Shown: one piece after another, positions 26,757 to 27,240 of the stretch
Layout of the letters: each line of letters begins with the position of its first letter
How positions within the stretch are numbered: position 1 is the stretch's first letter
Sequence record: OQ626344
Length of the DNA: 64,000 bases
Source of the DNA: Escherichia phage S127 BCL3
Reading direction: 5' to 3' (one strand)
Translations under genes and position numbers: made by a program
The notes under the pieces: generated by a model
Databases searched by the model: none
Told to the model about the DNA's origin: nothing
The model's input: only the letters and a program-made list of their open reading frames with translations

Positions 26757-26785
26757 ACTATACCACCTTAAAATATAGCTGTCAA
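26757..26785 (-). promoter_or_regulatory. sigma70-type promoter
   Basis: Minus strand TTGACA-17-TATAGT. Confidence 0.65.
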
Positions 26786-27240
26786 CCCTCTTTGTACTCC
26801 ACCACGATAATATCTATATCAAAAGTGGCAAGGTTAATAATGTCCTCTACATGTTCCCACTTCAAACCGCCTATGCCGCACCCGATCTTAGGGATGTAGA
26901 ATGGTAAAATCGACCCCTCAAATACTTCATTGACTCGCTCAAATCCTTTCAGTATTGAGAAATATTCAGCATTAGGTCCTGGATAGAACTGAGTATACAG
27001 ATTTATTCCGTAGACAATACCTCTCGAAGATAAGTGCTCCCAACGGGAGAACGCGCCCAGTTTACTTAGGCAACCGTGCATAGTCATTTTATCAGCTTCC
27101 AATGCTTGAGGGAATTCACGAGCAATCTGCTTTGCTACACCCTTCCCCATTGTGTGGAAGCAGTTACAACCGTGGATCAGGTGACCAGCACCGCTCTTAA
27201 AAAGGGAGATTAAATCTCCCTCTACAGTATCAATAATCAC
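26782..27240 (-). CDS. Macro-domain protein (ADP-ribose binding / ADP-ribosyl hydrolase family), 152 aa
   Basis: GDLISL...HGCNCFHTMGKGVAKQI...GCGIGGL matches Macro-domain motifs (N-x-x-G-x-M-G-x-G-(I/V)-A and G-x-G-x-G-G). GTG at 27240 with SD GAGGAG is preferred over ATG at 27321, which would overlap 27230..27655 by 92 nt. Confidence 0.8.
   Translation of the reverse strand: MIIDTVEGDLISLFKSGAGHLIHGCNCFHTMGKGVAKQIAREFPQALEADKMTMHGCLSKLGAFSRWEHLSSRGIVYGINLYTQFYPGPNAEYFSILKGFERVNEVFEGSILPFYIPKIGCGIGGLKWEHVEDIINLATFDIDIIVVEYKEG

Follow-up and report, generated by a model that had tools for sequence, protein, structure and literature searches.

Two phage macrodomain proteins have been described as factors acting against DarT, and both carry the name AdfM. 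In a preprint on phage T4, Humolli et al. (bioRxiv 10.1101/2025.11.20.689424) passed a T4 transposon library through a DarTG2 host and obtained tk.4 as the single significant match. A clean tk.4 knockout is DarTG2-sensitive, and the gene was named adfM, for anti-DarT factor Macrodomain. On plain K-12 the gene is dispensable. The second is PhiKZ gp104, the chimallivirus AdfM, which removes DarT2-made ADP-ribose from DNA in vitro (Cell Rep 2026, PMC13309987). A third relevant protein is cellular: in SCO6735 from Streptomyces coelicolor a glutamine, Gln85, occupies the catalytic-lysine position. Its ability to hydrolyse thymidine-linked ADP-ribose on DNA is lost with Q85A and almost lost with N27S, and SCO6735 protects cells from DarT (PMC9411070). 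This work concerns a macrodomain gene in a 64,000-nucleotide stretch of Escherichia phage S127 BCL3 (record OQ626344), the whole of which we call the window and whose numbering we use throughout. We argue that its product, the window protein, is a clear homolog and the Vequintavirus counterpart of T4 Tk.4 (AdfM) and that a counter-defence role for it is plausible.

Translation of the gene on the minus strand gives an intact product of 152 residues (Table 1). An earlier sequence-only reading of the window had called this a Macro-domain protein, and that assignment is borne out: both motifs it quoted are present, the match to Pfam Macro (PF01661) reaches 32 bits where the gathering score is 22, with positions 1-118 of the 118-position profile covered, and the AlphaFold2 model shows a confident macrodomain fold (mean predicted local distance difference test score, pLDDT, 94.7). 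The conserved glycine loops and Asp9 would be its ADP-ribose-binding features. The same reading had proposed comparing the protein with known families by hidden Markov model (HMM) and by structure, and here DarG is indeed among the closest. A profile built from 50 aligned homologs matches DarG from Mycobacterium tuberculosis (Mtb), BT1257 of Bacteroides (PDB 2FG1/2AFC), SCO6735 (PDB 5E3B), TARG1, DarG from Thermus aquaticus (Taq) and yeast Poa1p; the DarG (DarG2) macrodomain (PDB 5M3I, 5M31/5M3E, 7OMU) is the best PDB sequence match at 2e-17. Foldseek ranks TARG1, Poa1p, DarG, BT1257 and SCO6735 at the top, TARG1 first. Because the profile matches and the fold ranks point to the same proteins, the window protein belongs to the ALC1-like class (TARG1/DarG/SCO6735/Poa1p) and not to the MacroD, PARG or viral macro classes.

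It is not, however, a DarG. The sole NCBIfam and PADLOC match is DarG, and both are restricted to the N-terminal macrodomain: NCBIfam antitoxin_DarG reaches 48 bits where the equivalog cutoff is 250, over positions 3-143 of 338. Fold, Asn and glycine loops are common to both proteins, but DarG has about 330-350 residues with a C-terminal DarT-binding domain and is encoded beside darT, while the window protein has neither that domain nor a darT neighbour.

The resemblance to T4 Tk.4 extends over the full length of the protein, at 41% identity and an E value of 4e-43. Both are single domains of about 150 residues in PHROG 335 (8.8e-61 for the window protein), both contain HGCNCFHTMG, NLYTQ (with Gln at the position of the DarG lysine) and P.IG.GIG, and in each phage the start of the gene overlaps the stop of the gene upstream. 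The differences lie in the phage family, in the start codon (GTG in the window, ATG in T4) and in the context, since T4 tk.4 sits in the order vs-tk.4-tk.3 while the window gene is flanked on both sides by genes of unknown function. In Krischvirus kvi, an RB49-like phage, the vs-tk.4-tk locus has a gene (L004, 1501-1956) that is 70% identical to the window protein, which is thus closer to this homolog than to T4 Tk.4 itself. Because of that identity the Vequintavirus gene is closely tied to the T-even tk.4 family. The acidic gene upstream of it is also shared with Krischviruses, and these relationships suggest gene exchange between Vequintaviruses and RB49-like T-even phages, two groups of E. 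coli myoviruses.

The most informative comparison is in the active site. In every profile alignment Gln84 falls in the column of Lys80 (FPTK) of Taq DarG, Lys84 (ITK) of TARG1 and Gln85 of SCO6735. His23 and Asn26 align with His24 and Asn27 of SCO6735, and Asn26 also with Asn22 of DarG. Conservation was counted over the ungapped rows of a set of 249 members, which combined the database matches with the top 150 representatives of clusters at 50% identity. Gln84 and Asn26 are invariant (244 of 244 and 246 of 246), and the figures are 243 of 244 for Asn80 and 241 of 246 for His23. SCO6735 and BT1257, both cellular and only about 23-24% identical to the phage-encoded window protein, read G-Q (NMIGQ) where it reads T-Q. 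The predicted active site is therefore of the SCO6735 or Gln type, with His23, Asn26 and Gln84 matching His24, Asn27 and Gln85. The sequence-only reading had named the absence of catalytic residues as a finding that would speak against it. The lysine of DarG and TARG1 is indeed gone, yet the residues are not missing in the sense intended, because a Gln-type site is present that matches a proven lysine-independent variant, SCO6735 (PMC9411070). The loss of the canonical lysine could also be taken to mean that the protein only binds ADP-ribose, as a sponge or as a direct DarT inhibitor, and it is true that the Q85A form of SCO6735, though catalytically dead, still inhibits DarT through interaction with it (PMC9411070). 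We regard a pure binder as very improbable. Asn26, Gln84, His23 and both glycine loops are kept across 249 diverged members, and since the same residues are needed for SCO6735 activity (PMC9411070) this conservation fits an enzyme.

We believe, with moderate confidence, that the window protein is an early, orphan, antitoxin-like enzyme which uses a Gln/Asn-dependent mechanism to take DarT2-added ADP-ribose off phage DNA. It would be a small cytoplasmic single-domain enzyme, probably made early from a host-type promoter together with the upstream gene. Its substrate would be single-stranded phage DNA in which a host DarT2-type toxin has put ADP-ribose on thymidine; the enzyme would bind this ADP-ribose and break the base-ribose bond by hydrolysis, leaving free ADP-ribose and replicable DNA. 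With replicable DNA restored, the phage would escape DarTG2-type abortive defence. The chemistry is probably that of SCO6735: Gln84, held by Asn26, would position the distal ribose, and a backbone-held water would act in place of the lysine of DarG, TARG1 and PhiKZ AdfM. The gene, its start, the fold class, the make-up of the active site and the homology to T4 Tk.4 come from this analysis. The anti-DarTG2 role comes from T4 genetics and the de-ADP-ribosylation of DNA from biochemistry on SCO6735 and PhiKZ gp104, and we infer the same activity in the window protein. The sequence-only reading had proposed a counter-defence ADP-ribosyl hydrolase that might reverse ADP-ribosylation or quench ADP-ribose-derived signals. 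The first of these is the best-supported reading, and the T4 Tk.4 and PhiKZ gp104 reports point to DarT as the target; for the second, Thoeris-type quenching, we found no direct support.

Several points weigh against this proposal. Identity to T4 Tk.4 is only 41%, and the T4 evidence comes from a preprint and is genetic only (bioRxiv 10.1101/2025.11.20.689424). Humolli et al. also made a HIDEN-SEQ library of the V5-like phage Bas54, with no report on its macro gene in the accessible part of the preprint, and literature searches found no direct evidence on Vequintaviruses and DarTG2. Gln84 replaces the catalytic lysine of DarG and TARG1, and the DarT-binding domain of DarG is absent. Even the match to SCO6735 is incomplete: its mobile loop is 5 residues longer and carries Lys89, and the window protein lacks both. 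The window protein does have Lys33, the counterpart of SCO6735 Lys34, but most family members carry Ala, Ser or Gly at this position. Finally, the 25 of 79 neighbour families listed for cellular members of the family do not include darT, although single occurrences are possible. Net charge was dropped as an argument against DNA binding; the isoelectric point (pI) of the window protein is 5.6 and that of the DNA-acting PhiKZ gp104 is 5.05.

PhiKZ gp104 is, like the window protein, a phage-encoded single macrodomain of the same class. It differs in being imported into the phage nucleus (PMC13309987) and in retaining the DarG-type FPTK lysine (K78), which aligns at the NLYTQ site in hhalign where the window protein has Gln84. 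Identity to the family is only about 23%, with an hhalign probability of 97.6. Because of this low identity and the retained lysine, the T4-type and PhiKZ proteins are separate lineages of one class that share a name. Since one has Gln and the other Lys at this position, it seems that phages have drawn on two macrodomain lineages that differ in mechanism and are both now named AdfM. The wider interest of the locus is therefore enzymological, in the invariant Gln of the T4/Vequintavirus family as against the catalytic Lys of DarG, TARG1 and PhiKZ AdfM. We found no mention of this difference in the accessible parts of either AdfM paper. The Gln-type site common to T4 Tk.4 and the window protein is the only mildly notable feature here; the macrodomain idea itself is not new, since relatives already carry macro domain or Tk.4 annotations and the role proposed here is on record for a homolog.

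The place of TARG1 at the head of the Foldseek list raises the question of the substrate. Human TARG1/OARD1 acts on protein-linked ADP-ribose, and SCO6735 also clears Glu/Asp-linked ADP-ribose from PARP1 in a Gln85-dependent manner (PMC9411070). The window protein could then de-ADP-ribosylate protein or RNA instead of DNA, either undoing host ADP-ribosyltransferase toxins that act on the translation or transcription machinery or on mRNA, or tuning ADP-ribosylation made by the phage. We consider this improbable. The Lys84/Asp125 dyad of TARG1 is replaced by Gln84/Gly124, with Gly124 in the Asp125 position, and no ADP-ribosyltransferase gene was recognised among the scanned neighbours of the macro gene. 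The T4 phenotype is specific to DarTG2.

Poa1p leads to a different substrate. It acts on ADP-ribose-1''-phosphate and is among the best matches in both sequence and fold. Of its probed residues H23, S30 and F152, the first two pair with His23 and Thr30 of the window protein in the N-terminal part of a pairwise alignment whose central and C-terminal parts are unreliable. Small ADP-ribose derivatives might thus be the substrate instead of DNA, the protein being a Poa1p-like ADP-ribose-1''-phosphate phosphatase, an O-acetyl-ADP-ribose deacetylase, a degrader of Thoeris-type signals or an agent of NAD+ recovery. PHROG 335 and many GenBank records do say 'phosphatase', a label that goes back to the Poa1p-type enzyme, but this is a transferred name and not a test. 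Some members with the same Gln-type macrodomain are fused to NADAR and/or DUF4326 (P0179, P0231, P0241). In DarG1 and AdfN the NADAR domain serves as a guanine-ADP-ribose DNA hydrolase. Iyer et al. 2022 read macro-NADAR/DUF4326 fusions as processing low-molecular-weight ADP-ribose derivatives, which favours a small-molecule substrate and counts against DNA. We find the NADAR link compatible with a DNA-repair module for both bases and, equally, with the small-molecule ADP-ribose network of Iyer et al. 2022. In the Vibrio phages Athena (H74) and VPMCC14 (H80) the homolog adjoins a gene annotated as ribose-phosphate pyrophosphokinase, an adjacency that may point to a connection with pathways of NAD+/ADP-ribose recycling in the phage. 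We nevertheless hold a small-molecule substrate to be unlikely. Among close homologs T4 Tk.4 alone has functional data, and these implicate DarTG2, a DNA modifier; SCO6735, with the same Gln-type site, de-ADP-ribosylates DNA and protein (PMC9411070); and the scanned neighbours in the window include no NAD-salvage or Thoeris-related gene.

The family is widespread in phages. By tblastn a homolog is found in 2811 of 50,697 phage records (INPHARED), about 1 in 18, including T-even and Felixounavirus-like phages, genomes of Ackermannviridae size, and phages of Vibrio, Aeromonas and Acinetobacter; a full HMM search gives 1142 cluster representatives at E 1e-30 or better. It is rare in cellular genomes, with 77 loci, mostly in Rhodobacteraceae, found with a single search pattern in 185,579 species genomes. 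The 95 immediate neighbours of these loci are mainly rpoC, EamA transporters and tRNA synthetases, with NADAR in 4 cases; in Ruegeria the macro gene lies downstream of rpoC, in some cases directly after a NADAR gene that separates the two (loci L035, 3532-4456, and L039, 3453-4456). A bacterial origin as a DarT partner was considered and rejected on these 95 neighbours and the listed families. The recurrent NADAR/DUF4326 fusions and adjacency hint at a broader substrate range. Tk.4-type phage macrodomains might form a distinct Gln-type lineage whose substrates extend beyond DarT2-modified thymidine to other nucleic-acid or protein ADP-ribose adducts or to ADP-ribose-derived signals, although we advance this only tentatively and think it doubtful. 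If true, the Tk.4-type family would act against ADP-ribose-based immunity as a broad-spectrum eraser, by a lysine-independent mechanism unlike that of DarG and PhiKZ AdfM.

If the DNA-directed activity that we favour holds, most rV5-like E. coli phages would carry an answer to DarTG2-type defence. Such phages go into therapy cocktails and form part of the BASEL collection, and the gene is therefore relevant to host-range prediction.

The sequence-only reading had placed the likely start at a GTG overlapping the upstream stop region and took this to indicate translational coupling. The GTG is the right start because relatives align GTG or ATG at the same codon: GTG in the window phage and three other Vequintaviruses, ATG in T4 tk.4 and in the Krischvirus kvi homolog. 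The macro GTG (27240-27238) and the TGA stop of the upstream gene (27232-27230) bound the shared segment, and GAGGAG is found 10 nucleotides 5' of the GTG. Translational coupling to the upstream gene, with which the macro gene is probably co-transcribed, may be expected from this arrangement. Three start choices exist among relatives in GenBank, of which homology favours the GTG used in rV5_ev147 and I29 (152 residues). The mechanical open reading frame extends further, up to an ATG at 27321, and NHEP1 is annotated from there (L007, 26782-27321; 179 residues). B9-1 is annotated from an internal ATG at Met31 (L001, 6783-7151; 122 residues), with the loss of Asp9 and Asn26. Both the longer and the shorter model are at odds with the homolog alignment.

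Table 1. Features of the macrodomain locus, in window coordinates
Feature	Position	Strand	Details and basis
Macrodomain gene, T4 tk.4/adfM homolog	26782..27240	-	152 codons + stop, GTG start
Overlap of macro gene and upstream gene, GTGATTATTGA	27230..27240	-	11 nucleotides, from sequence
Motif HGCNCFHTMGKGVAKQI, residues 23-39	27124..27174	-	His23, Asn26 (codon 27163-27165), first glycine-rich loop MGKG; family conservation
Motif NLYTQ, residues 80-84	26989..27003	-	Gln84 codon 26989-26991; profile alignments to 5m3i, 2fg1, 5e3b, 4j5r
Motif GCGIGGL, residues 120-126	26863..26883	-	Second glycine-rich macrodomain loop; translation, alignments, conservation
Upstream gene overlapping macro start	27230..27655	-	141 residues, pI 4.37, phrog_8157, function unknown
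Sigma-70-like promoter match, TTTACA-17-TATAAT	27775..27803	-	11/12, consensus scan only; 5' of the two-gene unit; candidate early promoter
Sigma-70-like promoter match	26757-26785	-	11/12, consensus scan
Sigma-70-like promoter match	26304-26331	-	12/12, consensus scan
Strong terminator-like hairpin	28457-28478	-	Sequence scan

Downstream of the DNA polymerase gene runs a long leftward array of small open reading frames of unknown function, and the macro gene lies within it. Its neighbours are function-unknown phage genes with no Pfam or PADLOC match, and no darT is adjacent. The upstream gene encodes a very acidic protein (31 Asp+Glu) with no Pfam, PDB or PADLOC match and no reliable fold match; its homologs in RB49-like Krischviruses, at 37-39% identity, adjoin dam. 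Small acidic early proteins frequently act against host defence. This protein also suggested a split DarG, an idea for which the searches gave no support. The region holds 15 promoter-like sites against 9.1 +/- 3.1 in shuffles, and the three near-perfect sigma-70 matches all fall inside 1.5 kb, among small minus-strand open reading frames. As judged from these scans, the layout of promoters and terminator would fit an early region. A small downstream open reading frame (26336-26587, minus strand) carries a Phage_zn_bind_2 zinc-binding domain (PF23903, 1.5e-22) and is annotated shorter in relatives, with 65 residues and a start at 26530.

The window is from a Vequintavirus, an rV5-like E. coli myovirus, and in all 64 kb ARAGORN finds no tRNA or tmRNA gene. 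Phage B9-1 matches the 2.5 kb around the macro gene at 99.3% identity, and 115 phage records each cover 80% or more of this stretch. Annotations of the gene in relatives read 'macro domain protein', 'phosphatase', 'O-acetyl-ADP-ribose deacetylase' or 'Tk.4 conserved hypothetical protein'. Sixteen records titled 'Campylobacter phage' (host Campylobacter jejuni) are about 92% identical to 26000-28500 of the window, which looks like mislabelled hosts or contamination. In NHEP1, which is 98.5% identical, the DNA polymerase gene is annotated 969 nucleotides longer (L007, 32910-36656, as against 32909-35686 in the window) and the genes downstream of it are displaced by 970 nucleotides; NHEP1 accordingly has an insertion at this place, possibly an intein or a mobile element.
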